DNA of 15,174 nucleotides from a virus, in UHGV virus genome UHGV-1738898; one strand, 5' to 3'. This document shows positions 1 to 14,772 of this stretch, piece after piece. Each line of letters starts with the position of its first letter. The stretch's first letter is position 1. Under the pieces are notes generated by a model. It did no database searches and was not told where the DNA came from. It saw only the letters and a program-made list of their open reading frames with translations. Both the position numbers and the translations under genes were made by a program.

Positions 1-111
1 CTGAGGCAGCACCTGGCACGGCTGGGACGGAAGTCGCTGTCGTTCTCAAAATCGGTGGAGCTGCATGACAAAGTCATCGGGCATTATCTGAACATAAAAC
101 ACTATCAATAA
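1..111 (+). other. 3' end of an ORF entering from upstream of the window (frame 1, stop TAA 109-111); possibly the displaced 5' part of the gpE-like capsid gene
   Basis: Frame 1 is open from position 1 to the TAA at 109-111 ([36 protein letters not shown]). It aligns weakly, in register, with lambda gpE residues about 29-50 (R..S..F...G). The downstream E-like ORF is in frame 3. Confidence 0.3.
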
Positions 112-170
112 GTTGGAGTCATTACCCACGAGATGAGGGATACGAATCAAAAACAATTCGTCCAGGTTAT

Positions 171-965
171 ATGAAGCCGAAAAGCAGCATTGATCCAAAT
201 AAGTTAGCTGTGCGCCCTGCTGGTGTGTCACCTGAGCAATACAATGCTTTTGGGGCGCGTAATATTAAAGTTAAACAGGCGATTGTAAATCAGGCTAAAG
301 CTATTCGTGCACGTATTGAATGGCTTGCTGTTCAGGCAATCACAACGGGGAAAAATATCATTGAGGGCGATGGTATTGAACGTTATGAGCTGGACTGGAA
401 TATAAAACCACAAAATATCATCACTCAGTCTGGCGGTACTGAGTGGTCAGGTAAGGATAAAGAAACTTTTGATCCAAATGATGATATTGAGAGCTACGCA
501 GAATTTAGTGAGGGCGTCACTAATATCATCATTATGGGTGGTAATGTATGGAAGAAATACCGTTCATTCAGAGCGATAAAAGAGGCTTTGGATACCCGTC
601 GTGGTTCTAATTCCGAACTGGAAACGGCCCTTAAAGACCTTGGTGATTCGGTGAGTTTTAAAGGGTATATGGGCGATGTTGCGATTGTTGTTTACAGCGG
701 GCGTTATACCGACGAGGACGGAACAGAAAAACATTTCCTTGATCCTGATTTGATGGTGCTTGGCAATACGGCTCTTCAGGGGATTGTCGCCTATGGCGGT
801 ATTCAGGATCCGGAGCTAATCCGAATGGGGCTGACTAAAGCCGAACTTGCACCGAAAAACTATATTGTGCCTGGTGATCCGGCTATTGAATATGTGCAGA
901 CACATTCAGCACCACAGCCAATACCGGCCCGCATCAATCGTTTTGTTACCGTTCGCATTGGCTAA
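171..965 (+). CDS. Major capsid protein homolog (lambda gpE family), divergent; 5'-incomplete or frameshifted copy covering the equivalent of gpE residues ~78-341
   Basis: The 264-aa ORF aligns along its whole length with the lambda E protein encoded at 6034-7059 in this window (shared blocks ITQSGGTEWS..KDK.T.DP.DDIE.YA, LDTRRGS.SELETA.KDLG, GDVAIVVYSG, MVLGNT, IQD). Similarity continues upstream of the ATG in the same frame (PGYMKPK vs lambda PGYVKPK) until an in-frame TGA at 66-68. No convincing Shine-Dalgarno precedes ATG 171. Confidence 0.65.
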   Translation: MKPKSSIDPNKLAVRPAGVSPEQYNAFGARNIKVKQAIVNQAKAIRARIEWLAVQAITTGKNIIEGDGIERYELDWNIKPQNIITQSGGTEWSGKDKETFDPNDDIESYAEFSEGVTNIIIMGGNVWKKYRSFRAIKEALDTRRGSNSELETALKDLGDSVSFKGYMGDVAIVVYSGRYTDEDGTEKHFLDPDLMVLGNTALQGIVAYGGIQDPELIRMGLTKAELAPKNYIVPGDPAIEYVQTHSAPQPIPARINRFVTVRIG

Positions 966-974
966 GGGGGAGCA

Positions 975-1316
975 ATGGCTACTCATTACACTGAACTCAT
1001 GGCTGGCACTGAAGCACTGGTGACTACGCTGGGGATATTTTCAGCTAATAAAGGGGTAATTCCTGCATTTACGCCACTGATGCAGGAAGATGCAACAGGT
1101 GCACTGGTGGTATGGGATGGTTCGAGCGTAGGTAAAGCGGTTTATGTTTCCGCTGTACAAATCGACACCGCGAAAAAAATACAGGCTCAGGTCTATAAGA
1201 CAGGTGTCTTAAATGTTGATGCTCTGAACTGGCCTGAGTCTGTTAAAGAACTGTCAGTAAAGGTTGCAGCGTTTGTTGGCTCAGGTATTTCTGTTCAGCC
1301 GCTGGCTCGTGTGTAA
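975..1316 (+). CDS. Head decoration protein homolog (lambda gpD family), divergent
   Basis: The 113-aa ORF has a strong RBS (GGGGGAG, 966-972). It aligns with lambda D encoded at 5647-5979 (THY near the N-terminus; PAFTPLMQEDATGALVVWDG vs [20 protein letters not shown]; VYKTG...WPE vs FYKSG...WPE; AF.G..IS near the C-terminus). Confidence 0.7.
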   Translation: MATHYTELMAGTEALVTTLGIFSANKGVIPAFTPLMQEDATGALVVWDGSSVGKAVYVSAVQIDTAKKIQAQVYKTGVLNVDALNWPESVKELSVKVAAFVGSGISVQPLARV

Positions 1317-1327
1317 AGGGGGATACA

Positions 1328-1711
1328 ATGCAGAATGATTACAATGACCTTAAGCCAATTGCCGAAATGATGTACCCGAATCCAGCTGTAGAGGAATTAA
1401 AAGCTATCGCTGACAAAATGTGTTTAAGCGAGCGCCTTGTTGATATGAATCAGGTGATGGAAATTACAACCCTGAGTCGTCGTACACTGCTAAACCTTGA
1501 GGCTAGTGGAGAGTTCCCGGAGCGTGTGCAGGTTACGGAAGGGCGTAAGGCCTGGTATTTAAGTGAAGTGATCGACTGGATAAATAATATTCCTCGCGCT
1601 TCTGAATATTGCCGCGTACCTGTCCCAAAAAAGCCAGATGCGGCGCTATGCCTCAAGATTGAGCGTGTACGCCGCAATGCACGGGATGGTCGCTATAAGC
1701 TGATTGGTTGA
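1328..1711 (+). CDS. AlpA/excisionase-family winged-HTH DNA-binding protein with N- and C-terminal extensions
   Basis: The 127-aa ORF has a strong RBS (AGGGGGA). Its central segment LVDMNQVMEITTLSRRTLLNLEASGEFPERVQVTEGRKAWYLSEVIDWI matches the AlpA family pattern (LSRxTIYxLxxxGxFPxPVxLGxRxVxWxxSEIxxWI). Confidence 0.7.
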   Translation: MQNDYNDLKPIAEMMYPNPAVEELKAIADKMCLSERLVDMNQVMEITTLSRRTLLNLEASGEFPERVQVTEGRKAWYLSEVIDWINNIPRASEYCRVPVPKKPDAALCLKIERVRRNARDGRYKLIG

Positions 1712-1736
1712 TGAAATTAGGGCCCGCTCTGGCTGG

Positions 1737-1801
1737 CGGGTCCTTTCCGGTGATCCGGTAGGCTACGGGGCGGCGACCTCGCGGGTTTTCGCTATTTATG
1801 A
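1737..1801. other. cos: Lambda-type cohesive-end site (cosQ/cosN region); the 12-nt cohesive-end sequence GGGCGGCGACCT lies at 1768-1779
   Basis: CGGGTCCTTTCCGGTGATCCG...TACGGGGCGGCGACCTCGCGGGTTTTCGCTATTTATGA matches my recollection of the lambda right-end/left-end junction (ACGGGTCCTTTCCGGTGATCCGACAGGTTACG | GGGCGGCGACCTCGCGGGTTTTCGCTATTTATGAAAATTTTCC). There are a few mismatches just left of cosN and complete divergence after ...TATTTATGA. It sits in the 200-bp gap between the AlpA-like gene and the Nu1-like gene, 134 bp upstream of the latter. Confidence 0.8.
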
Positions 1802-1912
1802 GCCTTTTTCGGGTGCTGGTGGTGGTTTTGTTGTTCGCTCTATCTCTATGAATAAAAAGGAAAAGATAAAGCCAATACACCAACCTGAAACATTACTTAA
1901 GTGGGGATATTG
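1802..1912. promoter_or_regulatory. Putative divergent cosB (small-terminase binding region) between cosN and the Nu1-like gene
   Basis: This is the position equivalent to lambda cosB (R3-I1-R2-R1), but the sequence is unrelated to the lambda R sites (CGTTTCC-type). It contains short repeats (GGTGGTGG, TTGTTGTT, CTCTATCTCTAT) and an A-rich tract. The call rests on position only. Confidence 0.3.
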
Positions 1913-2455
1913 ATGAAATCGCACCTGATGAACAAAAAAAACATGGCGCAAAGCTGCCGTGTAAGTGCGACAGCGTTCGACAAGTGGGGAGTGACTCCCG
2001 TTGAACGTAAAGGCCGCGAGGCGTTTTATGATGTTGCCAGCGTAATAGACAATCGGGTTAGCAATGCAATTAACCAGATTACAGACGACAAAGGCGAGAT
2101 TGATGATGATGAACTCCTACGAGTCAGGATCAGATTGCTGACAGCACAGGCAGAGGCGCAGGAGCTTAAAAACGAGCGCGAACGCGGCGACGTTATTGAT
2201 ACAGCGTTTTGTATATACGTGCTTTCAAAATTGGCGAGTCAGATTTCTTCAATCATGGACAGCCTGCCGCTTGCCATGACAAGGAAGTTTCCCGACATGA
2301 AGCCGTCTATGCTGGATGGACTGAAAAAAGAAGTTATCAGAGCCTGTAACGCATGCGCAAAACTTGACGAAAACATACCGCTGATGCTGTCCGATTATCT
2401 GATGGAAACTGCCGGAAACGTACCGGATAAGTTGCAGCCGAATAAAGATAAGTAA
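1913..2455 (+). CDS. Terminase small subunit, lambda Nu1 family; N-terminal DNA-binding domain divergent, C-terminal half conserved
   Basis: ATG 1913 is preceded by GGGGA (1903-1907); the ORF track shows an upstream GTG at 1901. The C-terminal region RLLTAQAEAQELKNERERGDVIDTAFCIYVLSKLASQISSIMDSLPLAMTRKFPD closely matches lambda Nu1 (RLTRAQADAQELKNARDSAEVVETAFCTFVLSRIAGEIASILDGLPLSVQRRFPE, from memory). The N-terminus is only loosely similar (NKK, YD.A.VI). Confidence 0.8.
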   Translation: MKSHLMNKKNMAQSCRVSATAFDKWGVTPVERKGREAFYDVASVIDNRVSNAINQITDDKGEIDDDELLRVRIRLLTAQAEAQELKNERERGDVIDTAFCIYVLSKLASQISSIMDSLPLAMTRKFPDMKPSMLDGLKKEVIRACNACAKLDENIPLMLSDYLMETAGNVPDKLQPNKDK

Positions 2456-2466
2456 CGTAGTACGCT

Positions 2467-2748
2467 ATGACTGAATCCGAAATACTGCGATTAATCCGCC
2501 GTGCTTGTGGAATCAGCAAGCAGCATGACGAACAGGCCACGCAGCCGGACAGCGTGACCGCAGATAATTATGTGCGTGTAGTGGCTGAGGTGATGCGCCG
2601 TGACGGTATTGAGCTTAACGGCGTGGATATGCGCAACATACGAACAAGAGTCCTTGAGTTGCTGGCATATCGTCGCCGTTCTCAACAACGGAGGGAGAGC
2701 GCGAAAAATACTTACCAGTGGAAGAAGCCGGAACGATTGCGGCGGTAA
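2467..2748 (+). CDS. Hypothetical 93-aa protein with an arginine/lysine-rich C-terminus; sits where the large-terminase gene A would start in lambda
   Basis: Intact ORF 12 bp after the Nu1-like stop, with a weak RBS. It has no recognisable similarity to the lambda gpA N-terminus or any family I can name. C-terminal tail RRRSQQRRESAKNTYQWKKPERLRR. Confidence 0.4.
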   Translation: MTESEILRLIRRACGISKQHDEQATQPDSVTADNYVRVVAEVMRRDGIELNGVDMRNIRTRVLELLAYRRRSQQRRESAKNTYQWKKPERLRR

Positions 2749-2763
2749 CTTGCTGATATTCCC

Positions 2764-2788
2764 GATAACGCAAAATTGCGCTGGCTGA
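2764..2788. repeat. 25-bp direct repeat, copy 1 (GATAACGCAAAATTGCGCTGGCTGA), containing an inverted repeat CGCAA-aa-TTGCG
   Basis: Matches 2950-2974 at 22 of 25 positions. A second small dyad TTGCA-t-TGCAA lies at 2793-2803. Confidence 0.6.
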
Positions 2789-2949
2789 CTTGTTGCATTG
2801 CAAAAAGTTAAGCAGGAAGGCACGGCCTGTAAGATGGGATGCAGTAAGTAGTTCAAGGCTACCTTGTGCTGGCACGCACAGTTAAGCCGTCGGTGCTGGA
2901 TATCCCCCACTGGGGGAAAAGCTGGCTACATCCCTCACATCTGAGGACT

Positions 2950-2974
2950 GATAACGCGACATTGCGCTGGCTGG
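2950..2974. repeat. 25-bp direct repeat, copy 2 (GATAACGCGACATTGCGCTGGCTGG)
   Basis: Matches 2764-2788 at 22 of 25 positions. It is followed at 2979-2992 by the inverted repeat GTGCAA-aa-TTGCAC. Confidence 0.6.
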
Positions 2975-2999
2975 CAAAGTGCAAAATTGCACGATGGCC

Positions 3000-3161
3000 T
3001 AACCCATTGATTATTTCGAAAACCTGCAATGCAGGAAATCGGGGAAGTAAGCCTAAGCTATTGATTGTTTCGAAAACCCCCATTGGGGGATGTCGGGAAA
3101 GTAAGACTAACCCATTGATTCTTCCACAATCCTCAATTTGAGGAGGCCGGAACGTCTACAT
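3000..3161. repeat. Three tandem ~54-bp units, each carrying a perfect 13-bp 6-1-6 dyad at the same phase (3023-3035 CCTGCAATGCAGG; 3077-3089 CCCCCATTGGGGG; 3131-3143 CCTCAATTTGAGG)
   Basis: Units 1 and 2 (3000-3053, 3054-3107) are about 78% identical by my count. Unit 3 starts with the same 13 nt (TAACCCATTGATT) and then degenerates, but keeps a perfect dyad exactly 54 bp after the previous one. Arm substitutions between dyads are mirrored so symmetry is preserved. A related dyad CCCCCACTGGGGG lies at 2904-2916. Confidence 0.7.
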
Positions 3162-3428
3162 AGCTGCATCGCCGTAATGATGATTCAGCCCACCAGCCAA
3201 ATCAGCACAGCAACGACAGAATAGCCCGACACAGAAAAACCACGAATATGGGGTTTTTGTTATGACATGGTCATGATGACCACTCATACAAAACAGGTAA
3301 AGCCCACCAGCCTGATTAAAGGTTAACCGGAAAAAAGCCAGGTATCCAATCTCGATATGGGGATCCCTATATCGACATTAACGCCCACTAAAACTGTGCA
3401 TATATGCATAGAAAAAGCATCCACCAGC

Positions 3429-3520
3429 TTTATGACGGATGCCGCTCATCTTATAAATAATCGTGTATTGCAGTGTGTATTGCGACTCCTTTAAACGATA
3501 GGTCTGAGCATTCGTAATGT
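3429..3520 (+). promoter_or_regulatory. AT-rich region with sigma70-like promoter candidates upstream of the truncated B fragment
   Basis: Candidate 1: TTTATG (3429-3434), 17-bp spacer, TATAAA (3452-3457). Candidate 2: TTAAAC (3491-3496), 18-bp spacer, TAATGT (3515-3520). Hexamer matching by eye only. Confidence 0.2.
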
Positions 3521-3563
3521 ACTGTTTTTAAATTTTATTTTTTCCTGTCTTTTCATAAAGGCG

Positions 3564-4337
3564 ATGTATGCCGCCACCATTGAAAGTGAGCTGGATACGC
3601 AGTCAGCGATGGATTTTATTCTGGGCGCGAACAGTCAGGAGCAGCGGGAAAGGCTGACGGGCTGGATTGGTGAAATTGCCGCGTATTACGCTGCAGCACC
3701 GGTCCGTCTGGGAGGCGCAAAAGTGCCGCACCTGATGCCGGGGGACTCACTGAACCTGCAGACGGCTCAGGACACGGATAACGGCTACTCCGTGTTTGAG
3801 CAGTCACTGTTGCGGTATATCGCTGCCGGGCTGGGTGTCTCGTATGAGCAGCTTTCCCGGAATTACGCCCAGATGAGCTACTCCACGGCACGGGCCAGTG
3901 CGAACGAGTCGTGGGCGTACTTTATGGGGCGGCGAAAATTCGTCGCATCCCGTCAGGCGAGCCAGATGTTTCTGTGCTGGCTGGAAGAGGCCATCGTTCG
4001 CCGCGTGGTGACGTTACCTTCAAAAGCGCGCTTCAGCTTTCAGGAAGCCCGCAGTGCCTGGGGGAACTGCGACTGGATAGGCTCCGGTCGTATGGCCATC
4101 GATGGTCTGAAAGAAGTTCAGGAAGCGGTGATGCTGATAGAAGCCGGACTGAGCACCTACGAGAAAGAGTGCGCGAAACGCGGTGACGACTATCAGGAAA
4201 TTTTTGCCCAGCAGGTCCGTGAAACGATGGAGCGCCGTGCAACCGGTCTTAAACCGCCCGCCTGGGCGGCTGCGGCATTTGAATCCGGACTGCGACAATC
4301 AACAGAGGAGGAGAAGAGTGACAGCAGAGCTGCGTAA
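3564..4337 (+). pseudogene. B: Portal protein gpB, 3' fragment only (C-terminal 257 codons, equivalent to lambda B residues ~277-533)
   Basis: The ORF (MYAATIESELDTQSAMDFILGANSQEQRERLTGWIGEIAAYYAAAP...AAAFESGLRQSTEEEKSDSRAA) matches the C-terminal half of lambda B as I recall it. An in-frame stop lies at 3492-3494. DNA upstream of ~3555 is AT-rich, non-coding and unlike lambda. The first approximately 276 codons of B are absent from the window. Confidence 0.85.
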
Positions 4338-5637
4338 TCTCCCGCATATTGCCAGCATGGCTTTTAATGAGCCGCTGATGCTTGAACCCGCCTATGCGCG
4401 GGTTTTCTTTTGTGCGCTTGCAGGCCAGCTTGGGATCAGCCGCCTGACGGATGCAGTATCCGGCGACAGCCTGACTGCCGGAGAGGCACCCGCGGCGCTG
4501 GCGTTATCCGGTGATGATGACGGACCACGACAGGCCCGCAGTTATCAGGTCATGAACGGCATCGCCGTGCTGCCGGTGTCCGGTACGCTGGTCAGCCGGA
4601 CGCGGGCGCTGCAGCCGTATTCGGGAATGACCGGTTACAACGGCATTATCGCCCGTCTGCAACAGGCTGCCAGCGATCCGATGGTGGACGGCATTCTGCT
4701 GGATATGGACACACCGGGCGGGATGGTGGCGGGAGCATTTGACTGTGCTGACATCATCGCCCGTGTGCGAGACATAAAACCGGTATGGGCGCTGGCCAAC
4801 GACATGAACTGCAGTGCAGGTCAGCTGCTTGCCAGCGCCGCCTCCCGGCGTCTGGTCACGCAGACCGCCCGGACAGGCTCCATCGGCGTCATGATGGCTC
4901 ACAGTAATTACGGTGCTGCGCTGGAGAAACAGGGCGTGGAAATCACGCTGATTTACAGCGGCAGCCATAAGGTGGATGGCAACCCCTACAGCCATCTACC
5001 GGATGATGTCCGGGAAACACTGCAGTCCCGGATGGATGCAACCCGCCGGATGTTTGCACAGAAGGTGTCGGCATATACCGGCCTGTCCGTGCAGGCTGTG
5101 CTGGATACCGAGGCTGCAGTGTACAGCGGTCAGGAGGCCATTGATGCCGGACTGGCTGATGAACTTGTGAACAGTACCGATGCGATCACCGTCATGCGTG
5201 ATGCACTGGATGCACGTAAATCCCGTCTCTCAGGAGGGCGAATGACCAAAGAGACTCAATCAACAACTGTTTCAGCCACTGCTTCGCAGGCTGACGTTAC
5301 TGGCGTGGTGCAAGCGACGGAGGGCGAGAACGCCAGCGCTGCGCAGCCGGACGTGAACGCGCAGATCACCGCAGCGGTTGCGGCAGAAAACAGTCGCATT
5401 ATGGGGATCCTCAACTGTGAGGAGGCTCACGGACGCGAAGAACAGGCATGCGTGCTGGCCGAAACCCCCGGTATGACCGTGGAAACGGCCCGCCGTATTC
5501 TGGCCGCAGCACCACAGAGTGCACAGGCGCGCAGTGACACTGCGCTGGATCGTCTGATGCAGGGGGCACCGGCACCGCTGGCTGCAGGTAACCCGGCATC
5601 TGATGCCGTTAACGATTTGCTGAACACACCAGTGTAA
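4318..5637 (+). CDS. C: Head protease / minor capsid protein gpC (S49 ClpP-like peptidase family), GTG start
   Basis: The translation from GTG 4318 (VTAELRNLPHIASMAFNEPLMLEPAYARVFF...) matches lambda C over its 439 aa. The start overlaps the B stop by 20 bp, as in lambda. The ORF-track start at 4183 is an in-frame upstream extension inside B. Confidence 0.9.
   Translation: MTAELRNLPHIASMAFNEPLMLEPAYARVFFCALAGQLGISRLTDAVSGDSLTAGEAPAALALSGDDDGPRQARSYQVMNGIAVLPVSGTLVSRTRALQPYSGMTGYNGIIARLQQAASDPMVDGILLDMDTPGGMVAGAFDCADIIARVRDIKPVWALANDMNCSAGQLLASAASRRLVTQTARTGSIGVMMAHSNYGAALEKQGVEITLIYSGSHKVDGNPYSHLPDDVRETLQSRMDATRRMFAQKVSAYTGLSVQAVLDTEAAVYSGQEAIDAGLADELVNSTDAITVMRDALDARKSRLSGGRMTKETQSTTVSATASQADVTGVVQATEGENASAAQPDVNAQITAAVAAENSRIMGILNCEEAHGREEQACVLAETPGMTVETARRILAAAPQSAQARSDTALDRLMQGAPAPLAAGNPASDAVNDLLNTPV
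5032..5637 (+). CDS. nu3: Scaffolding protein Nu3, in-frame internal start within C
   Basis: In-frame ATG at 5032 (MDATRRMFAQKV...) at the position corresponding to lambda Nu3, sharing the stop of C. Called from established lambda gene structure. Confidence 0.7.
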   Translation: MDATRRMFAQKVSAYTGLSVQAVLDTEAAVYSGQEAIDAGLADELVNSTDAITVMRDALDARKSRLSGGRMTKETQSTTVSATASQADVTGVVQATEGENASAAQPDVNAQITAAVAAENSRIMGILNCEEAHGREEQACVLAETPGMTVETARRILAAAPQSAQARSDTALDRLMQGAPAPLAAGNPASDAVNDLLNTPV

Positions 5638-5646
5638 GGGATGTTT

Positions 5647-5979
5647 ATGACGAGCAAAGAAACCTTTACCCATTACCAGCCGCTGGGCAACAGTGACCCG
5701 GCTCATACCGCAACCGCGCCCGGCGGATTGAGTGCGAAAGCGCCTGCAATGACCCCGCTGATGCTGGACACCTCCACCCGTAAGCTGGTTGCGTGGGATG
5801 GCACCACCGACGGTGCTGCCGTTGGCATTCTTGCAGTTGCTGCTGACCAGACCAGCACCACACTGACGTTCTACAAGTCCGGCACGTTCCGTTATGAGGA
5901 TGTGCTCTGGCCGGAGGCTGCCAGCGACGAGACGAAAAAACGGACCGCGTTTGCCGGAACGGCAATCAGCATCGTTTAA
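5647..5979 (+). CDS. D: Head decoration protein gpD
   Basis: [42 protein letters not shown]...FAGTAISIV matches lambda D (110 aa). The ORF-track start at 5641 adds two upstream in-frame codons. Confidence 0.9.
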
Positions 5980-6000
5980 CTTTACCCTTCATCACTAAAG

Positions 6001-6020
6001 GCCGCCTGTGCGGCTTTTTT
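6001..6020 (+). terminator. GC stem-loop followed by a T-run in the D-E intergenic region (terminator-like hairpin)
   Basis: GCCGC (6001-6005), loop CTGT, GCGGC (6010-6014), then TTTTTT (6015-6020). The stem is short, so it may act as an RNA stability or processing element rather than an efficient terminator. Confidence 0.3.
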
Positions 6021-6033
6021 ACGGGATTTTTTT

Positions 6034-7059
6034 ATGTCGATGTACACAACCGCCCAGCTGCTGGCGGCAAATGAGCAGAAATTTAAGTTTGATCCGCTGT
6101 TTCTGCGTCTCTTTTTCCGTGAGAGCTATCCCTTCACTACGGAGAAAGTCTATCTCTCACAAATTCCGGGACTGGTAAACATGGCGCTGTACGTTTCGCC
6201 GATTGTTTCCGGTGAGGTTATCCGTTCCCGTGGCGGCTCCACCTCTGAATTTACGCCGGGATATGTCAAACCCAAGCATGAAGTGAATCCGCAGATGACC
6301 CTGCGTCGCCTGCCGGATGAAGATCCGCAGAATCTGGCGGACCCGGCTTACCGCCGCCGTCGCATCATCATGCAGAACATGCGTGACGAAGAGCTGGCCA
6401 TTGCTCAGGTCGAAGAGATGCAGGCAGTTTCTGCCGTGCTCAAGGGCAAATACACCATGACCGGTGAAGCCTTCGATCCGGTTGAGGTGGATATGGGCCG
6501 CAGTGCGGCGAACAACATCACGCAGTCCGGCGGCACGGAGTGGAGCAAGCGTGACAAGTCCACGTATGACCCGACCGACGATATCGAAGCCTACGCGCTG
6601 AACGCCAGCGGCGTGGTGAATATCATCGTGTTTGACCCGAAAGGCTGGGCGCTGTTCCGTTCCTTCAAAGCCGTCAGGGAGAAGCTGGATACCCGTCGCG
6701 GCTCTCATTCCGAACTGGAGACAGCGGTAAAAGACCTGGGCAAAGCGGTGTCTTATAAGGGAATGTATGGCGATGTGGCCATCGTCGTGTATTCCGGACA
6801 GTACGTGGAAAACGGTGTCAAAAAGAACTTCCTGCCGGACAACACGATGGTGCTGGGTAACACTCATGCACGCGGTCTGCGCACCTATGGCTGTATTCAG
6901 GATGCGGATGCATTGAGTGAGGGTATTAATGCGTCTCCCCGTTATCCGAAAAACTGGAAGACATCCGGCGATCCGGCGCGAGAGTTCACCATGATTCAGT
7001 CAGCACCGCTGATGCTGCTGGCTGATCCTGATGAGTTCGTGTCCGTTCAACTGGCGTAA
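6034..7059 (+). CDS. E: Major capsid protein gpE
   Basis: The 341-aa ORF beginning MSMYTTAQLLAANEQKFKFDPLFLRLFFRESYPFTTEKVYLSQIPGLVNMALYVSPIVSGEVIRSRGG... matches lambda E essentially end to end. Confidence 0.95.
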   Translation: MSMYTTAQLLAANEQKFKFDPLFLRLFFRESYPFTTEKVYLSQIPGLVNMALYVSPIVSGEVIRSRGGSTSEFTPGYVKPKHEVNPQMTLRRLPDEDPQNLADPAYRRRRIIMQNMRDEELAIAQVEEMQAVSAVLKGKYTMTGEAFDPVEVDMGRSAANNITQSGGTEWSKRDKSTYDPTDDIEAYALNASGVVNIIVFDPKGWALFRSFKAVREKLDTRRGSHSELETAVKDLGKAVSYKGMYGDVAIVVYSGQYVENGVKKNFLPDNTMVLGNTHARGLRTYGCIQDADALSEGINASPRYPKNWKTSGDPAREFTMIQSAPLMLLADPDEFVSVQLA

Positions 7060-7061
7060 TC

Positions 7062-7085
7062 ATGGCCCTTAGGGGCCATTTTCTC
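7062..7085 (+). terminator. Stem-loop plus T/C-rich tail in the E-FI intergenic region
   Basis: ATGGCCC (7062-7068), loop TTAG, GGGCCAT (7073-7079), followed by TTTTCT. Structure only; function unverified. Confidence 0.25.
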
Positions 7086-7100
7086 TCTGTGGAGGAGTCC

Positions 7101-7496
7101 ATGACGAAAGATGAACTGATTGCCCGTCTCCGGTCGCTGGGTGAGCAACTGAACCGTGATGTCAGCCTGACGGGGACGAAAGAAGAACTGGCGCTCCGTG
7201 TGGCAGAGCTGGAAGAGGAGCTTGATGACAAGGATGACGCAGCCGGTCAGGACACGTCTGTCAGCCCGGAAAATGCGCTGACCGGACATGAAAATGAGGT
7301 GGTATCAGCACAGACGGATACCGTGACTGATACGGCTGTTCTGGTCACGGTTGTGGCACTGGTGACGCTGCATACCGATGCACTTCACGCCACGCGGGAT
7401 GAGGCTGTGGCATTTGTGCTGCCGGGAACGGCGTTCCGTGTCTCTGCCGGTGTGGCAGCCGAAATGACAGAACGTGGCCTGGCCAGAATGCAATAA
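7101..7496 (+). CDS. FI: DNA-packaging / head assembly protein gpFI
   Basis: ATG 7101 is preceded by GGAGGAG. MTKDELIARLRSLGEQLNRDVSLTGTKEELALRVAEL... and ...HTDALHATRDEAVAFVLPGTAFRVSAGVAAEMTERGLARMQ match lambda FI. The central linker differs from what I recall of lambda. Confidence 0.9.
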   Translation: MTKDELIARLRSLGEQLNRDVSLTGTKEELALRVAELEEELDDKDDAAGQDTSVSPENALTGHENEVVSAQTDTVTDTAVLVTVVALVTLHTDALHATRDEAVAFVLPGTAFRVSAGVAAEMTERGLARMQ

Positions 7497-7507
7497 CGGG
7501 AGGCGCT

Positions 7508-7861
7508 GTGGCTGATTTCGATAACCTGTTCGATGCTGCCATTGCCCGCGCTGATGAAACGATACGCGGGTACATGGGAACGTCAGCCACCATGACATCC
7601 GGTGAGCAGTCCGGTGCTGTGATACGTGGTGTTTTTGATGACCCTGAAAATATCAGCTATGCCGGACAGGGCGTGCGCGTTGAAGGCTCCAGCCCGTCCC
7701 TGTTTGTCCGGACTGATGATGTGCGGCAGCTGCGGCGCGGCGACACGCTGACCATCGGTGAGGAAAACTTCTGGATAGACCGGATTTCGCCGGATGATGG
7801 CGGAAGCTGTCATCTCTGGCTTGGGCGGGGCGTACCGCCTGCCGTTAACCGTCGCCGCTGA
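7508..7861 (+). CDS. FII: Head-tail joining protein gpFII (GTG start)
   Basis: MADFDNLFDAAIARADETIRGYMGTSATMTSGEQSGAVIRGVFDDPENISYAGQGVRVEG... matches lambda FII (117 aa). Confidence 0.9.
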   Translation: MADFDNLFDAAIARADETIRGYMGTSATMTSGEQSGAVIRGVFDDPENISYAGQGVRVEGSSPSLFVRTDDVRQLRRGDTLTIGEENFWIDRISPDDGGSCHLWLGRGVPPAVNRRR

Positions 7862-7872
7862 AAGGGGGATGT

Positions 7873-8451
7873 ATGGCCATAAAAGGTCTTGAGCAGGCCA
7901 TTGAAAACCTCAGCCGTATCAGCAAAACGGCGGTGCCTGGTGCCGCCGCAATGGCCATTAACCGCGTTGCTTCATCCGCGATATCGCAGTCGGCGTCACA
8001 GGTTGCCCGTGAGACAAAGGTACGCCGGAAACTGGTAAAGGAAAGGGCCAGGCTGAAAAGGGCCACGGTCAAAAATCCGCAGGCCAGAATCAAAGTTAAC
8101 CGGGGGGATTTGCCCGTAATCAAGCTGGGTAATGCGCGGGTTGTCCTTTCGCGCCGCAGGCGTCGTAAAAAGGGGCAGCGTTCATCCCTGAAAGGTGGCG
8201 GCAGCGTGCTTGTGGTGGGTAACCGTCGTATTCCCGGCGCGTTTATTCAGCAACTGAAAAATGGCCGGTGGCATGTCATGCAGCGTGTGGCCGGGAAAAA
8301 CCGTTACCCCATTGATGTGGTGAAAATCCCGATGGCGGTGCCGCTGACCACGGCGTTTAAACAAAATATTGAGCGGATACGGCGTGAACGTCTTCCGAAA
8401 GAGCTGGGCTATGCGCTGCAGCATCAACTGAGGATGGTAATAAAGCGATGA
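7873..8451 (+). CDS. Z: Tail completion protein gpZ
   Basis: The 192-aa ORF MAIKGLEQAIENLSRISKTAVPGAAAMAINRVASSAISQ... matches lambda Z. Its stop overlaps the U start (ATGA). Confidence 0.9.
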   Translation: MAIKGLEQAIENLSRISKTAVPGAAAMAINRVASSAISQSASQVARETKVRRKLVKERARLKRATVKNPQARIKVNRGDLPVIKLGNARVVLSRRRRRKKGQRSSLKGGGSVLVVGNRRIPGAFIQQLKNGRWHVMQRVAGKNRYPIDVVKIPMAVPLTTAFKQNIERIRRERLPKELGYALQHQLRMVIKR

Positions 8452-8843
8452 AACATACTGAACTCCGTGCAGCCATACTGGATGCACTGGAGAAGCATGA
8501 CACCGGGGCGACGTTTTTTGATGGTCGCCCCGCTGTTTTTGATGAGGCGGATTTTCCGGCAGTTGCCGTTTATCTCACCGGCGCTGAATACACGGGCGAA
8601 GAGCTGGACAGCGATACCTGGCAGGCGGAGCTGCATATCGAAGTTTTCCTGCCTGCTCAGGTGCCGGATTCAGAGCTGGATGCGTGGATGGAGTCCCGGA
8701 TTTATCCGGTGATGAGCGATATCCCGGCACTGTCAGATTTGATCACCAGTATGGTGGCCAGCGGCTATGACTACCGGCGCGACGATGATGCGGGCCTGTG
8801 GAGTTCAGCCGATCTGACTTATGTCATTACCTATGAAATGTGA
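8448..8843 (+). CDS. U: Tail tube terminator protein gpU
   Basis: The 131-aa [55 protein letters not shown]... matches lambda U. Confidence 0.9.
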
Positions 8844-8850
8844 GGACGCT

Positions 8851-9591
8851 ATGCCTGTACCAAATCCTACAATGCCGGTGAAAGGTGCCGGGACCACCCT
8901 GTGGGTTTATAAGGGGAGCGGTGACCCTTATGCGAATCCGCTTTCAGACGTTGACTGGTCGCGTCTGGCAAAAGTTAAAGACCTGACGCCCGGCGAACTG
9001 ACCGCTGAGTCCTATGACGACAGCTATCTCGATGATGAAGATGCAGACTGGACTGCGACCGGGCAGGGGCAGAAATCTGCCGGAGATACCAGCTTCACGC
9101 TGGCGTGGATGCCCGGAGAGCAGGGGCAGCAGGCGCTGCTGGCGTGGTTTAATGAAGGCGATACCCGTGCCTATAAAATCCGCTTCCCGAACGGCACGGT
9201 CGATGTGTTCCGTGGCTGGGTCAGCAGTATCGGTAAGGCGGTGACGGCGAAGGAAGTGATCACCCGCACGGTGAAAGTCACCAATGTGGGACGTCCGTCG
9301 ATGGCAGAAGATCGCAGCACGGTAACAGCGGCAACCGGCATGACCGTGACGCCTGCCAGCACCTCGGTGGTGAAAGGGCAGAGCACCACGCTGACCGTGG
9401 CCTTCCAGCCGGAGGGCGTAACCGACAAGAGCTTTCGTGCGGTGTCTGCGGATAAAACAAAAGCCACCGTGTCGGTCAGTGGTATGACCATCACCGTGAA
9501 CGGCGTTGCTGCAGGCAAGGTCAACATTCCGGTTGTATCCGGTAATGGTGAGTTTGCTGCGGTTGCAGAAATTACCGTCACCGCCAGTTAA
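8851..9591 (+). CDS. V: Major tail tube protein gpV (with C-terminal Ig-like domain)
   Basis: From ATG 8851 the translation [36 protein letters not shown]... matches lambda V (246 aa). The ORF-track start at 8821 is an upstream in-frame extension overlapping the end of U. Confidence 0.9.
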
Positions 9592-9606
9592 TCCGGAGAG
9601 TCAGCG

Positions 9607-10029
9607 ATGTTCCTGAAAACCGAATCATTTGAACATAACGGTGTGACCGTCACGCTTTCTGAACTGTCAGCCCTGCAGCGCATTGAGCATCTCGCCCTGA
9701 TGAAACGGCAGGCAGAACAGGCGGAGTCAGACAGCAACCGGAAGTTTACTGTGGAAGACGCCATCAGAACCGGCGCGTTTCTGGTGGCGATGTCCCTGTG
9801 GCATAACCATCCGCAGAAGACGCAGATGCCGTCCATGAATGAAGCCGTTAAACAGATTGAGCAGGAAGTGCTTACCACCTGGCCCACGGAGGCAATTTCT
9901 CATGCTGAAAACGTGGTGTACCGGCTGTCTGGTATGTATGAGTTTGTGGTGAATAATGCCCCTGAACAGACAGAGGACGCCGGGCCCGCAGAGCCTGTTT
10001 CTGCGGGAAAGTGTTCGACGGTGAGCTGA
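9607..10029 (+). CDS. G: Tail assembly chaperone gpG
   Basis: The 140-aa ORF MFLKTESFEHNGVTVTLSELSALQRIEHLALMKRQAEQAESDSNRKFTVEDAIRTGAFLV... matches lambda G. Confidence 0.9.
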   Translation: MFLKTESFEHNGVTVTLSELSALQRIEHLALMKRQAEQAESDSNRKFTVEDAIRTGAFLVAMSLWHNHPQKTQMPSMNEAVKQIEQEVLTTWPTEAISHAENVVYRLSGMYEFVVNNAPEQTEDAGPAEPVSAGKCSTVS

Positions 10030-10445
10030 GTTTTGCCCTGAAACTGGCGCGTGAGATGGGGCGACCCGACTGGCGTGCCATGCTTGCCGGGATGTCATCC
10101 ACGGAGTATGCCGACTGGCACCGCTTTTACAGTACCCATTATTTTCATGATGTTCTGCTGGATATGCACTTTTCCGGGCTGACGTACACCGTGCTCAGCC
10201 TGTTTTTCAGCGATCCGGATATGCATCCGCTGGATTTCAGTCTGCTGAACCGGCGCGAGGCTGACGAAGAGCCTGAAGATGATGTGCTGATGCAGAAAGC
10301 GGCAGGGCTTGCCGGAGGTGTCCGCTTTGGCCCGGACGGGAATGAAGTTATCCCCGCTTCCCCGGATGTGGCGGACATGACGGAGGATGACGTAATGCTG
10401 ATGACAGTATCAGAAGGGATCGCAGGAGGAGTCCGGTATGGCTGA
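9607..10445 (+). CDS. T: Tail assembly chaperone fusion gpG-T, made by programmed -1 ribosomal frameshift at 10005-10011
   Basis: The slippery heptamer G GGA AAG sits at 10005-10011 in the G frame. The -1 frame continues as VFDGELSFALKLAREMGRPDWRAMLAGMSSTEYADWHRFYSTHYF... to the TGA at 10443-10445, matching the lambda T portion. Confidence 0.8.
10005..10011 (+). promoter_or_regulatory. Programmed -1 frameshift slippery site (GGGAAAG) for G/G-T
   Basis: Heptamer in the X XXY YYZ configuration relative to the G frame, near the end of G, with the T ORF open in the -1 frame. Confidence 0.8.
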
Positions 10446-12999
10446 ACCGGTAGGCGATCTGGTCGTTGATTTAAGTCTGGATGCGGCCAGATTTGACGAG
10501 CAGATGGCCAGAGTCAGGCGTCATTTTTCCGGTACGGAAAGTGATGCGAAAAAAACAGCGGCAGTCGTTGAACAGTCGCTGAGCCGACAGGCGCTGGCTG
10601 CACAGAAAGCGGGGATTTCCGTCGGGCAGTATAAAGCCGCCATGCGTATGCTGCCTGCACAGTTCACCGACGTGGCCACGCAGCTTGCAGGCGGGCAAAG
10701 TCCGTGGCTGATCCTGCTGCAACAGGGGGGGCAGGTGAAGGACTCCTTCGGCGGGATGATCCCCATGTTCAGGGGGCTTGCCGGTGCGATCACCCTGCCG
10801 ATGGTGGGGGCCACCTCGCTGGCGGTGGCGACCGGTGCGCTGGCGTATGCCTGGTATCAGGGCAACTCAACCCTGTCCGATTTCAACAAAACGCTGGTCC
10901 TTTCCGGCAATCAGGCGGGACTGACGGCAGATCGTATGCTGGTCCTGTCCAGAGCCGGGCAGGCGGCAGGGCTGATGTTTAACCAGACCAGCGAGTCACT
11001 CAGCGCACTGGTTAAGGCGGGGGTAAGCGGTGAGGCTCAGATTGCGTCCATCAGCCAGAGTGTGGCTCGTTTCTCCTCTGCATCCGGCGTGGAGGTGGAC
11101 AAGGTCGCTGAAGCCTTCGGGAAGCTGACCACAGACCCGACGTCGGGGCTGACGGCGATGGCACGCCAGTTCCATAACGTGACGGCGGAGCAGATTGCGT
11201 ATGTTGCTCAGTTGCAGCGTTCCGGCGATGAAGCCGGGGCATTGCAGGCGGCGAACGAGGCCGCAACGAAAGGGTTTGATGACCAGACCCGCCGCCTGAA
11301 AGAGAACATGGGCACGCTGGAGACCTGGGCAGACAGGACTGCGCGGGCCTTCAAATCCATGTGGGATGCGGTGCTGGATATTGGTCGTCCTGATACCGCG
11401 CAGGAGATGCTGATTAAGGCAGAGGCTGCGTTTAAGAAAGCAGACGACATCTGGAATCTGCGCAAGGATGATTATTTTGTTAACGATGAAGCGCGGGCGC
11501 GTTACTGGGATGATCGTGAAAAGGCCCGTCTTGCGCTTGAAGCCGCCCGAAAGAAGGCTGAGCAGCAGACTCAACAGGACAAAAATGCGCAGCAGCAGAG
11601 CGATACCGAAGCGTCACGGCTGAAATATACCGAAGAGGCGCAGAAGGCTTACAAACGGCTGCAGACGCCGCTGGAGAAATATACCGCCCGTCAGGAAGAA
11701 CTGAACAAGGCACTGAAAGACGGGAAAATCCTGCAGGCGGATTACAACACGCTGATGGCGGCGGCGAAAAAGGATTATGAAGCGACGCTGAAAAAGCCGA
11801 AACAGTCCGGCGTGAAGGTGTCTGCGGGCGATCGTCAGGAAGACAGTGCTCATGCTGCCCTGCTGACGCTTCAGGCAGAACTCCGGACGCTGGAGAAGCA
11901 TGCCGGAGCGAATGAGAAAATCAGCCAGCAGCGCCGGGATTTGTGGAAGGCAGAAAGTCAGTTCGCGGTACTGGAGGAGGCGGCACAACGTCGCCAGCTG
12001 TCCGCACAGGAGAAATCCCTGCTGGCGCATAAAGATGAGACGCTGGAGTACAAACGCCAGCTGGCTGCACTTGGCGACAAGGTTACGTATCAGGAGCGCC
12101 TGAACGCGCTGGCGCAGCAGGCGGATAAATTCGCACAGCAGCAACGGGCAAAACGGGCCGCCATTGATGCGAAAAGCCGGGGGCTGACTGACCGGCAGGC
12201 AGAACGGGAAGCCACGGAACAGCGCCTGAAGGAACAGTATGGCGATAATCCGCTGGCGCTGAATAACGTCATGTCAGAGCAGAAAAAGACCTGGGCGGCT
12301 AAAGACCAGCTTCGCGGGAGCTGGATGGCAGGCCTGAAGTCCGGCTGGAGTGAGTGGGAAGAGAGCGCCACGGACAGTATGTCGCAGGTAAAAAGTGCAG
12401 CCACGCAGACCTTTGATGGTATTGCACAGAATATGGCAGCGATGCTGACCGGCAGTGAGCAGAACTGGCGCAGCTTCACCCGTTCCGTGCTGTCCATGAT
12501 GACAGAAATTCTGCTTAAGCAGGCAATGGTGGGGATTGTCGGGAGTATCGGCAGCGCCATTGGCGGGGCTGTTGGTGGCGGCGCATCCGCGTCAGGCGGT
12601 ACAGCCATTCAGGCCGCTGCGGCGAAATTCCATTTTGCAACCGGAGGATTCACAGGAACCGGCGGTAAATATGAGCCAGCGGGGATTGTTCATCGTGGTG
12701 AATTTGTCTTCACGAAGGAGGCAACCAGCCGGATTGGCGTGGGGAATCTTTACCGGCTGATGCGCGGCTATGCCACCGGCGGTTATGTCGGTACACCGGG
12801 CAGCATGGCAGACAGCCGGTCGCAGGCGTCCGGGACGTTTGAGCAGAATAACCATGTGGTGATTAACAACGACGGCACGAACGGGCAGATAGGTCCGGCT
12901 GCTCTGAAGGCAGTGTATGACATGGCCCGCAAGGGTGCCCGTGATGAAATCCAGGCACAGATGCGCGATGGTGGTCTGTTCTCCGGAGGTGGACGATGA
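10438..12999 (+). CDS. H: Tail tape measure protein gpH
   Basis: The 853-aa ORF MAEPVGDLVVDLSLDAARFDEQMARVRRHFSGTESDAKKTAAVVEQ... matches lambda H in length and sequence. Its start overlaps the end of T. Confidence 0.95.
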   Translation: MAEPVGDLVVDLSLDAARFDEQMARVRRHFSGTESDAKKTAAVVEQSLSRQALAAQKAGISVGQYKAAMRMLPAQFTDVATQLAGGQSPWLILLQQGGQVKDSFGGMIPMFRGLAGAITLPMVGATSLAVATGALAYAWYQGNSTLSDFNKTLVLSGNQAGLTADRMLVLSRAGQAAGLMFNQTSESLSALVKAGVSGEAQIASISQSVARFSSASGVEVDKVAEAFGKLTTDPTSGLTAMARQFHNVTAEQIAYVAQLQRSGDEAGALQAANEAATKGFDDQTRRLKENMGTLETWADRTARAFKSMWDAVLDIGRPDTAQEMLIKAEAAFKKADDIWNLRKDDYFVNDEARARYWDDREKARLALEAARKKAEQQTQQDKNAQQQSDTEASRLKYTEEAQKAYKRLQTPLEKYTARQEELNKALKDGKILQADYNTLMAAAKKDYEATLKKPKQSGVKVSAGDRQEDSAHAALLTLQAELRTLEKHAGANEKISQQRRDLWKAESQFAVLEEAAQRRQLSAQEKSLLAHKDETLEYKRQLAALGDKVTYQERLNALAQQADKFAQQQRAKRAAIDAKSRGLTDRQAEREATEQRLKEQYGDNPLALNNVMSEQKKTWAAKDQLRGSWMAGLKSGWSEWEESATDSMSQVKSAATQTFDGIAQNMAAMLTGSEQNWRSFTRSVLSMMTEILLKQAMVGIVGSIGSAIGGAVGGGASASGGTAIQAAAAKFHFATGGFTGTGGKYEPAGIVHRGEFVFTKEATSRIGVGNLYRLMRGYATGGYVGTPGSMADSRSQASGTFEQNNHVVINNDGTNGQIGPAALKAVYDMARKGARDEIQAQMRDGGLFSGGGR

Positions 13000-13325
13000 A
13001 AACCTTCCGCTGGAAAGTGAAACCCGGGATGGATGTGACATCGGCTCCTTCCGTCAGGGAGGTGCGCTTTGGTGATGGCTATTCCCAGCGTGCGCCTGCC
13101 GGGCTGAACGCTGACCTGAAAACGTACAGCGTGACGCTGTCTGTCTCCCGTGAGGAGGCCACGGCGCTGGAGTCGTTTCTGGCTGAGCACGGGGGCTGGA
13201 AGGCCTTTTTGTGGACGCCGCCTTATGGTTACAGGCAGATAAAGGTGACCTGCGCAAAATGGTCGTCGCAGGTCAGTATGTTGCGTGTTGAGTTCAGCGC
13301 AGAGTTTAAACAGGTGGTGAACTGA
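12996..13325 (+). CDS. M: Tail tip protein gpM
   Basis: The 109-aa ORF MKTFRWKVKPGMDVTSAPSVREVRFGDGYSQRAPAGLNADLKTYSVTLSV... matches lambda M. ATGA overlap with the H stop. Confidence 0.9.
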   Translation: MKTFRWKVKPGMDVTSAPSVREVRFGDGYSQRAPAGLNADLKTYSVTLSVSREEATALESFLAEHGGWKAFLWTPPYGYRQIKVTCAKWSSQVSMLRVEFSAEFKQVVN

Positions 13326-14023
13326 TGCAGGATATCCGGCAGGAAACACTGAATGAATGCACCCGTGCGGAGCAGTCGGCCAGCGTGGTGCTCTGGGAAA
13401 TCGATCTGACAGAGGTCGGTGGTGAACGTTATTTTTTCTGTAATGAGCAGAACGAAAAAGGTGAGCCGGTCACCTGGCAGGGGCGACGGTATCAGCCGTA
13501 TCCCATTCAGGGGAGTGGTTTTGAACTGAATGGCAAAGGCACCAGTACGCGCCCCACGCTGACGGTTTCTAACCTGTACGGTATGGTCACCGGGATGGCG
13601 GAAGATCTGCAGAGTCTGGTCGGCGGAACGGTGGTCCGGCGTAAGGTTTACGCCCGTTTTCTGGATGCGGTGAACTTCGTCAACGGAAACAGTGACGCCG
13701 ATCCGGAGCAGGAGGTGATCAGCCGCTGGCGCATTGAGCAGTGCAGCGAACTGAGCGCGGTGAGTGCCTCTTTTGTACTGTCCACGCCGACGGAAACGGA
13801 CGGCGCTGTTTTTCCGGGACGTATCATGCTGGCCAACACCTGCACCTGGACCTATCGCGGCGATGAGTGCGGTTATCACGGTCCGGCGGTCGCGGATGAA
13901 TATGACCAGCCAACGTCCGATATCACGAAGGATAAATGCAGCAAATGCCTGAGCGGTTGTAAGTTCCGCAATAACGTCGGCAACTTTGGCGGCTTCCTTT
14001 CCATTAACAAACTTTCGCAGTAA
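13325..14023 (+). CDS. L: Tail tip protein gpL (C-terminal cysteine cluster)
   Basis: The 232-aa ORF MQDIRQETLNECTRAEQSASVVLWEIDLTEVGGERYFF... matches lambda L. Cys-rich C-terminus CTWTYRGDECGYHG...CSKCLSGC. Confidence 0.9.
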   Translation: MQDIRQETLNECTRAEQSASVVLWEIDLTEVGGERYFFCNEQNEKGEPVTWQGRRYQPYPIQGSGFELNGKGTSTRPTLTVSNLYGMVTGMAEDLQSLVGGTVVRRKVYARFLDAVNFVNGNSDADPEQEVISRWRIEQCSELSAVSASFVLSTPTETDGAVFPGRIMLANTCTWTYRGDECGYHGPAVADEYDQPTSDITKDKCSKCLSGCKFRNNVGNFGGFLSINKLSQ

Positions 14024-14028
14024 ATCCC

Positions 14029-14772
14029 ATGACACAGACAGAATCAGCAATTCTGGCGCACGCCCGGCGATGTGCGCCAGCGGAGTCGTGCGGCTTCGTG
14101 GTAAGCACGCCGGAGCGGGAAAGATATTTCCCCTGCGTGAATATCTCCGGTGAGCCGGAGGCGTATTTCCGGATGGCTCCGGAGGACTGGCTGCGGGCAG
14201 AAATGCAGGGTGAGATTGTGGCGCTGGTCCACAGTCACCCCGGTGCTCTGCCCTGGCTGAGTGAGGCCGACCGGCGGCTGCAGGTGCAGAGTGATTTGCC
14301 GTGGTGGCTGGTCTGCCGGGGGGCGATTCACAAGTTCCGCTGTGTGCCACATCTTACCGGGCGGCGCTTTGAGCACGGGGTGACGGACTGTTACACGCTG
14401 TTCCGGGATGCTTATCATCTGGCGGGGATTGAGATGCCGGATTTTCATCGCGAGGATGACTGGTGGCGTCACGGTCAGAATCTCTATCTGGATAATCTGG
14501 AGGCCACAGGGCTGTATCAGGTGCCGTTGTCAGCGGCGCAGCCGGGCGATGTGCTGCTGTGCTGTTTTGGTTCATCGGTGCCGAATCATGCCGCCATTTA
14601 CTGCGGCGACGGCGAGCTGTTGCACCATATTCCTGAACAACTGAGCAAACGAGAGAGGTATACAGACAAATGGCAGCGACGCACACACTCCCTCTGGCGT
14701 CACCGGGCATGGCACGCATCTGCCTTTACGGGGATTTACAACGATTTGGCCGCCGCATCGACCTTCGTGTGA
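14029..14772 (+). CDS. K: Tail tip assembly protein gpK (JAB/MPN-like N-terminus plus NlpC/P60-like C-terminus), long form; classical lambda start corresponds to ATG 14173
   Basis: The 247-aa ORF starts 5 bp after the L stop. Residues from M49 (MAPEDWLRAEMQGEIVALVHSHPG...) correspond to the classically annotated 199-aa K. The upstream 48 codons are open and include a glutamate-containing stretch (PAESCGFV) ahead of the HSHP motif. Confidence 0.8.
   Translation: MTQTESAILAHARRCAPAESCGFVVSTPERERYFPCVNISGEPEAYFRMAPEDWLRAEMQGEIVALVHSHPGALPWLSEADRRLQVQSDLPWWLVCRGAIHKFRCVPHLTGRRFEHGVTDCYTLFRDAYHLAGIEMPDFHREDDWWRHGQNLYLDNLEATGLYQVPLSAAQPGDVLLCCFGSSVPNHAAIYCGDGELLHHIPEQLSKRERYTDKWQRRTHSLWRHRAWHASAFTGIYNDLAAASTFV

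Follow-up and report, generated by a model that had tools for sequence, protein, structure and literature searches.

A split lambda-type portal gene in virus genome UHGV-1738898 and its probable origin as the right attachment site of a helper-embedded satellite

The 15,174 nucleotides of virus genome UHGV-1738898 that were analyzed here (hereafter, the window) contain a run of lambda-type late genes that begins abruptly in the middle of the portal gene B, and this raises the question of how the gene came to be cut. The original prediction had proposed either a deletion/substitution scar in a defective prophage or the boundary at which another element acquired a lambda virion module. Our results point instead to site-specific integration: positions 3558-3565 are very probably the attR core of an HE-PICI of about 10.9 kb, of the site group B:Phage_portal_2:241, inserted into the B gene of its lambdoid helper prophage. 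HE-PICIs are satellites found inside late genes of their own lambdoid helper prophages (Tommasini, Mageeney & Williams, NAR Genom Bioinform 2023, PMC10111431). The feature is an attachment site that is already catalogued, and no new principle is involved. All the features of the window located below lie on the plus strand.

The position of the joint was mapped by a megablast search of positions 3100-4000 against phage records, in which only query positions 459-901 were aligned, placing the start of the lambda-type portal homology at 3558. From there to position 4337, the identity to lambda-family portal genes was 99-99.8%. Position 3558 corresponds to position 1501 in the locus of phage 2H10 (L002), whose portal gene is intact (CDS 679-2280, 533 codons), and is the first base of codon 275 (AAG, K275), followed by GCG (A276), ATG (M277, at 3564), and TAT (Y278), so that the reading from 3558 is K275-A-M277-Y-A-A-T-I-E. 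The original prediction had correctly noticed an abrupt start of lambda sequence near residue 277 of B, at ..KAMYAATIE, and the megablast result sets this start at the codon for K275. The in-frame stop and the AT-rich DNA that it had reported upstream were also confirmed, with a TAA at 3492-3494 in frame with the B remnant and a GC content of 0.41 in 3301-3600 versus 0.57-0.62 downstream. Nothing portal-like was found to be encoded in the window upstream of 3558, in agreement with the earlier statement that no portal N-terminus is encoded before 3555. The boundary between the lambda virion module and foreign DNA is, as had been described, a sharp one, and B cannot function in its present form.

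The 3′ half of the helper portal gene (3558-4337, codons 275-533), severed from its 5′ half, was assigned from its match to Pfam Phage_portal_2 (profile positions 238-354) and from its identity to phage genes, and the same half is annotated in relatives as "phage portal protein, missing N-terminus". It opens with an ATG of its own (M277) right after the att core, forming an ORF of 257 amino acids (3564-4337). The helper late genes C, D, E, FI, FII, Z, U, V, G, T, H, M, L, and K and the 5′ part of I, in which the window ends, occupy positions 4318-15174, according to the ORF list, gene calls, Pfam matches, and the annotation of relatives. The helper cos, Nu1, A, W, and the 5′ half of B are all absent from the window.

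A three-way alignment of intact B, attL, and attR identified the core as the identity block AAGGCGAT at 3558-3565, equivalent to 9561-9568 in the locus of strain CFSAN029787 (L001) and 1501-1508 in that of phage 2H10, and the switch in homology falls inside this block. The window carries attR alone, attL being observed in relatives. In reconstruction, recombination within the block regenerates …GTG AAG GCG ATG TAT GCC…, that is, intact B, and the junction of the reconstructed attP reads …TTTTCATAAAGGCGATTTATGTCTATC…. Because a second copy of the 8-mer AAGGCGAT occurs at position 9155 of the window, the 8-mer is uninformative by itself, and its weight comes from its coincidence with both homology breakpoints.

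The doubled arm-type motif of the HE-PICI attP P arm, TGTATTGC-N4-TGTATTGC, was found by exact matching at 3464-3483. The two copies of TGTATTGC, at 3464-3471 and 3476-3483, lie within exact motif matches at 3463-3472 and 3475-3484, and the doubled motif is located 75-94 bp ahead of the core, with its proximal half-site 75-82 bp ahead. In the reconstructed attP, a co-oriented second pair lies 138-157 bp past the start of the core and a fifth copy at 180-187. A doubled motif, tgTGTATTGCantgTGTATTGCa, has been reported as unique to HE-PICIs, in which it is positioned 81±2 bp upstream and 132±2 bp downstream of the attP centre (PMC10111431). The distances measured here from the core centre, 82 bp to the centre of the proximal half-site and 134.5 bp to the start of the downstream copy in the relatives, agree with the published spacing within a few base pairs, given that the reference points used in the paper may differ. 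When one mismatch was allowed, GTGTATTGCR was counted four times in the window versus 2.0 expected, which is not above chance, and the evidence from the motif is therefore the exact tandem pair at the published position and not the number of sites. In addition, M277 aligns at position 238 of the current Pfam Phage_portal_2 profile, which is consistent with the site name B:Phage_portal_2:241. The original prediction, which had placed the junction in the interval 3480-3570, reported no att-like repeat at the joint; this point was not upheld, as the block lies within that interval and the doubled motif extends into it.

Both joints were also read for their coding consequences. The attP brings no replacement coding sequence for either the 5′ or the 3′ part of B. 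At attL, B reads on into 19 foreign codons (…KAIYVYHLTVVARIVRQLH) and then meets a stop; at attR, an in-frame stop stands ahead of the block. Judged from these reading frames, B is split at codons 275-277 and a portal cannot be produced while the satellite is integrated.

The same joint is present in many complete E. coli genomes. The whole 3100-4000 stretch, including the attR joint, was found in 58 of 5,426 such genomes and the attL joint in 62, and the complete element plus 300 bp of flanking B at either end was matched in 53 at a coverage of at least 80%. Among the matches listed, 48 of 60 were single matches running over both B flanks (query 1-11516) at a coverage of at least 94%. Over window positions 127-3557, the right end of the satellite is 100% identical in strain N66 (L003) and 98.9% identical in CFSAN029787. 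In CFSAN029787, a 10.9-kb block ends on its right at the joint and on its left at a portal pseudogene annotated as "missing C-terminus". The block encodes, in order, a tyrosine integrase, AlpA, Bro-N, an Icd-like protein, DUF4222, a D5-type primase, and SSB, followed by late genes that specify the major capsid and head decoration proteins, another AlpA-family protein, the small terminase, and a hypothetical protein; these assignments are backed by Pfam and PHROG scans. The DNA directly upstream of the element belongs to a lambdoid prophage and carries W, the large terminase gene, nohD/Nu1, and lysis genes. The arrangement in N66 is the same, with the insert between two portal pseudogenes, and EC93 is a further carrier of the intact composite. 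The check suggested earlier, an inspection of the upstream genome for integrase and replication genes and for 5′ B sequences, succeeded in both relatives.

In every complete genome with the joint that was examined, the 5′ half of B, W, A, Nu1, and cos are located just beyond the 10.9-kb insert, and the late genes past C-I continue into J, lom, and the tail fibres. The satellite genes are all on the same strand as B in the window, CFSAN029787, and N66. The integrase and AlpA genes at the left end, followed by the Bro, Replication, and Late zones, were seen in the two strains, one of which is assigned to the HE-PICI integrase clade in PMC10111431, the window itself containing the Late zone alone. 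A search of deposited phage genomes for the satellite, as a possible sign of its packaging, returned a 65-bp cos segment as the sole match.

These genomes also allow the other explanations of the joint to be weighed. A prophage that had lost cos-Nu1-A-W-B′ and had the gap filled by unrelated DNA would account for the absence of the helper cos, Nu1, A, W, and 5′ B from the window, and such a history finds some support in the IS1 carried by the window and in the IS1-mediated loss of just these parts in O121 strain 201805972. However, the breakpoint is the published att block to the base, at the right distance from the arm motif, and the DNA on its left is 100% identical to a mobile element that is flanked by the missing 5′ half of B in 53-62 complete genomes. 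In these genomes, W, A, and Nu1 precede that 5′ half, and a random deletion would not repeat the joint. A scar, as originally proposed, is very unlikely, since the parts believed to be lost are found beyond the insert. An assembly misjoin, conceivable for a SPAdes metagenome contig containing lambdoid sequences that are repeated among strains, is barely credible, as independent projects have recovered the same joint, base for base, in 58 finished E. coli chromosomes and as it also appears in the published HE-PICI catalogue (PMC10111431). The paired joints in finished genomes, taken together with the whole-element matches, exclude both a misassembly and a random deletion scar.

The converse scenario, in which the element on the left captured the lambda virion module from C to I and 3558 marks the boundary of the acquisition, draws on the description of PICIs with elongated late zones that hold up to 17 captured prophage late genes, and on the E-, D-, and Nu1-like genes that the left-hand element has of its own. 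Against it, the complete genomes show an element that ends at 3565 (attR) and starts at an attL 10.9 kb upstream in the same B gene, with late genes running on to J, lom, and the tail fibres on one side and the lysis genes and Nu1-A-W of one lambdoid prophage on the other. Moreover, the C-to-I genes are 99% identical to those of free-living lambda-like phages, whereas the satellite E and D proteins are only 41% and 37% identical to their counterparts in this module. We consider a capture even less likely than a scar, though not quite as improbable as a misjoin. The mobile-element boundary that had been suspected is real, but its direction and mechanism were misjudged: a small satellite has integrated site-specifically into the B gene of an otherwise complete lambdoid late operon.

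Integration of an HE-PICI into B also agrees with a published entry. HE-PICIs have integrases of a single clade and the zone order Integration, Bro, Replication, Late (PMC10111431). Supplementary File 1 of that study lists CP011416.1/3698288-3709185 as Eco2613.11.B_Phage_portal_2_241, with Eco2613.58 as its helper and aaggcgat as the identity block (PMC10111431), and the listed coordinates fall within 4 bp of the att cores that we mapped in CFSAN029787, at both ends. This element of CFSAN029787 is like that of the window in its target codon, its aaggcgat block, its doubled TGTATTGC motif, and its co-orientation with the late operon. Its genes follow the four-zone order, of which the window shows the Late zone, and the nucleotide identity of the family over 127-3557 is 98.9-100%. 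The copy in the window differs from the Eco2613.11 family solely by an IS1 in the capsid gene, its left part lying beyond the contig.

The late zone of the satellite opens in the window with the 3′ three quarters of a lambda-E-like major capsid gene (127-965; Pfam Phage_cap_E, 2.9e-41; phrog_29 on the intact homologue), which has 346 codons when intact in relatives and whose product is 41% identical to the helper E protein. It is followed by a head-decoration gene of the lambda D family (975-1316; Pfam HDPD, 3.7e-14; phrog_49), the product of which is 37% identical to the helper D protein. These levels of identity indicate that the two satellite genes are old paralogues of the helper genes and not recent copies. 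Next comes a gene for an AlpA-family HTH protein of 127 amino acids (1328-1711; Pfam Phage_AlpA, 7.6e-9; phrog_2790, 1e-49), for which the best sequence match in the PDB was AlpA (8c3t). A relationship of this protein to Rpp was considered and rejected, since no Rpp chain came up when the PDB was searched by sequence. The satellite ends with a gene for a protein of 93 amino acids (2467-2748; phrog_1561, 1e-55) that is annotated as hypothetical in relatives and gave no Pfam match.

Between the AlpA-family gene and the last gene lie a cos site and a small terminase gene. The cos site (1737-1803) was delimited by alignment with helper cos regions, about 68 bp being near-identical to the helper/lambda cos, and it includes the exact lambda cosN 12-mer GGGCGGCGACCT at 1768-1779, the sole match without mismatch in the window. 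A stretch of 65 bp is 95% identical to the "cos site" of lambda, HK629, and DE3. Downstream of the approximately 68-bp cos, where cosB would lie, the satellite and helper sequences part ways. The small terminase (TerS) gene (1913-2455) encodes a Nu1-family protein of 180 amino acids (Pfam Phage_Nu1, 3.3e-24; phrog_57, 5e-51), in which the Pfam match is confined to residues 66-148 (profile positions 80-162), the N-terminal DNA-binding part having diverged. Its identity to the helper Nu1 is 37%, with the similarity mostly after residue ~70, and a sequence search of the PDB returned no close solved relative. In lambda, the N-terminus of Nu1 binds cosB and the remainder of the protein contacts gpA. 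From this division of labor, the satellite TerS is predicted to couple the helper gpA to a private cosB of the satellite. The original prediction that cos, Nu1, A, W, and the 5′ half of B are missing is valid for those of the helper, but a cosN and a Nu1-family gene, both belonging to the satellite, had been overlooked.

Some 800 bp of the satellite right arm are non-coding. A repeat search detected three tandem units of 54 bp with short palindromes at 2997-3158, the second and third unit being 80% and 61% identical to the first, and each unit holding a palindrome of 5-6 bp (CCTGCAATGCAGG, CCCCCATTGGGGG, and CCTCAATTTGAGG). Related hairpins are found at 2899-2917 and 2950-2990. No Rfam match was obtained in window positions 1-3700 (E ≤ 1) and no Pfam match for the unannotated ORFs overlapping 2491-3141 on either strand. 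The threefold hairpin repeats could be part of the control of excision or packaging, or of something undescribed. Further along, in the P arm at 3348-3379 and about 190 bp before the core, the 16-nt sequences AATCTCGATATGGGGA and TCCCTATATCGACATT form an abutting inverted repeat with 88% complementarity, which may be a protein-binding site.

The only HE-PICI studied by experiment is Eco567.11capE (site E:Phage_cap_E:80) from E. coli NRG857c (PMC10111431). After treatment with mitomycin C, the composite of prophage and satellite was found by qPCR and deep sequencing to excise and replicate, followed by the precise excision of the satellite, and no virions were recovered (PMC10111431). Like the B-site element, 11capE is about 11 kb long, is embedded in a lambda-like prophage, within a late gene, and has an E-family capsid gene of its own; its integrase clade and attP architecture are also the same according to PMC10111431. 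The two differ in their target, which is the capsid gene E for 11capE and the portal gene B for the element in the window, and in their packaging genes, as 11capE has no terS and has a 258-bp cos region in common with its helper (PMC10111431), whereas in the window element a Nu1-type terS is present and the cos stretch shared with the helper is limited to about 68 bp. In GCA_900448615.1 (UGAW01000001.1, 2784-13763; L004), an element lies between two Phage_cap_E fragments and carries the identical 264-aa capsid fragment; we infer that it is an E-site HE-PICI. At its right end, two minus-strand genes with matches to GmrSD_N, one of them faint, replace the terS region and are possibly defence cargo.

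Among other satellites, EcCICFT073 and the Gram-negative cos PICIs with Rpp have the int-alpA-primase-late layout in common with the B-site element (Fillol-Salom et al. 2018, 2019; PMC6092414, PMC6739421). EcCICFT073 combines helper-like cosQ and cosN with a private cosB, and packaging is redirected at the level of DNA binding by the small terminase, a logic that would also apply here. In contrast to the satellite in the window, which sits inside its helper prophage, EcCICFT073 integrates in the chromosome away from its helper, and it uses an Rpp that heterodimerises with the phage TerS, whereas the window element has a full TerS homologue. Assignment of the latter to the Rpp-type cos PICIs, which lack a terS of their own, was rejected, given its own Nu1-family terS and an HTH protein of 127 amino acids without a match to Rpp by sequence in the PDB. 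Assignment to the capsid-forming PICIs (cf-PICIs), defined by a full head and packaging set (TerS, TerL, portal, protease, capsid, connectors) for which the helper gives tails only, was likewise discarded: capsid, decoration, and TerS genes are present, but TerL, portal, and protease genes are not.

A gene that is split by an integrative element and mended by timed, precise excision is also known from skin in sigK and from phi10403S in comK. Here, in contrast, the gene that is split is part of a second mobile element, namely the helper prophage, and the presumed beneficiary is the satellite and not the cell. The comparison with gene regulation by excisable elements is drawn in PMC10111431 itself.

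A succession of events can be proposed from these observations. The tyrosine integrase of the satellite would recombine attP with the 8-bp AAGGCGAT site in a lambdoid B gene, leaving the satellite co-oriented with the late operon. By analogy with 11capE, the composite of prophage and satellite would excise and replicate on induction, and helper late transcription would read into the satellite. The authors of the HE-PICI study proposed that late readthrough drives int and alpA and that the helper supplies virion and packaging functions (PMC10111431). Int and AlpA would then excise the satellite precisely, again as in 11capE, restoring B (…K-A-M-Y…; …GTGAAGGCGATGTATGCC…) and an attB that reads …CATTGTGAAGGCGATGTATGCCGCC…. 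The anatomy of the element suggests that the satellite would use the portal, protease, large terminase, and tails of the helper while supplying its own E-like capsid and D-like decoration proteins. On the same grounds, the C-terminal half of its TerS may dock onto the helper gpA and the divergent N-terminus may read the private cosB beside the helper-identical cosN, an arrangement that would direct packaging to satellite DNA.

The copy in the window has been damaged by an insertion sequence. Positions 1-126 are the right end of an IS1 (…AAGTTGGAGTCATTACC), as indicated by thousands of IS1 matches to window positions 1-126/132. The junction at 126/127 joins it to the interior of the satellite capsid gene, after about nucleotide 202 of 1041, with CACGAGATG or a neighboring 9-mer as a candidate 9-bp target duplication. 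The statement that no IS element marks the joint therefore holds for the joint itself, but an IS1 is present at the left end of the window. The window is the entire SPAdes metagenome contig NODE_1136_length_15174 (ENA assembly ERZ772878), its left end lies inside IS1, and the assembler evidently stopped at this repeat. The integrase, attL, and 5′ half of B of this copy lie outside the window, and its left part is deduced from relatives. The IS1/capsid junction was found in no complete E. coli genome and, by an exact 33-mer scan, in no GTDB representative.

A comparable decay is seen in O121 strain 201805972 (NZ_CP119441.1; L013, 5248-23023), in which five IS1 copies are located in or beside the same composite. 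This derivative retains an intact attR and a truncated integrase but has lost attL together with the 5′ half of B; its satellite capsid gene is also split by IS1, at a different site than in the window. By analogy, the copy analyzed here could likewise have been stranded by IS1-mediated decay upstream, and "defective prophage" may be true of this strain as a secondary event, not as the origin of the joint. The helpers that host the B-site satellite are often damaged themselves: in CFSAN029787, the tape-measure gene is a pseudogene and a tail-fibre assembly gene is frameshifted (27361-29897 and 39606-40191), and in N66, FI has an internal stop (20976-21371). By contrast, every frame from C through K is open in the window.

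For annotation, a split lambda portal gene with about 11 kb of AT-richer DNA separating its halves is to be read as a helper-embedded satellite and not as a dead prophage, and the prophage may regain a working portal gene upon excision of the satellite. This configuration, in which the helper has an essential head gene taken hostage by its satellite, was of interest when it was published in 2023; the window adds one more, IS1-damaged copy and confirms for the B-site family the possession of a Nu1-type terminase of its own and of a lambda cosN. We tentatively suggest that the B:241 HE-PICIs might take over packaging in a way that has yet to be demonstrated among Gram-negative cos satellites, in which a full Nu1-type TerS, and not Rpp, would recruit the helper gpA through its C-terminal half to a chimeric cos (helper cosN and private cosB), with a shell of their own E- and D-like proteins built on a helper portal that is available only after excision from B. 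If this is true, the timing of all head assembly in the cell would be set by excision of the satellite.
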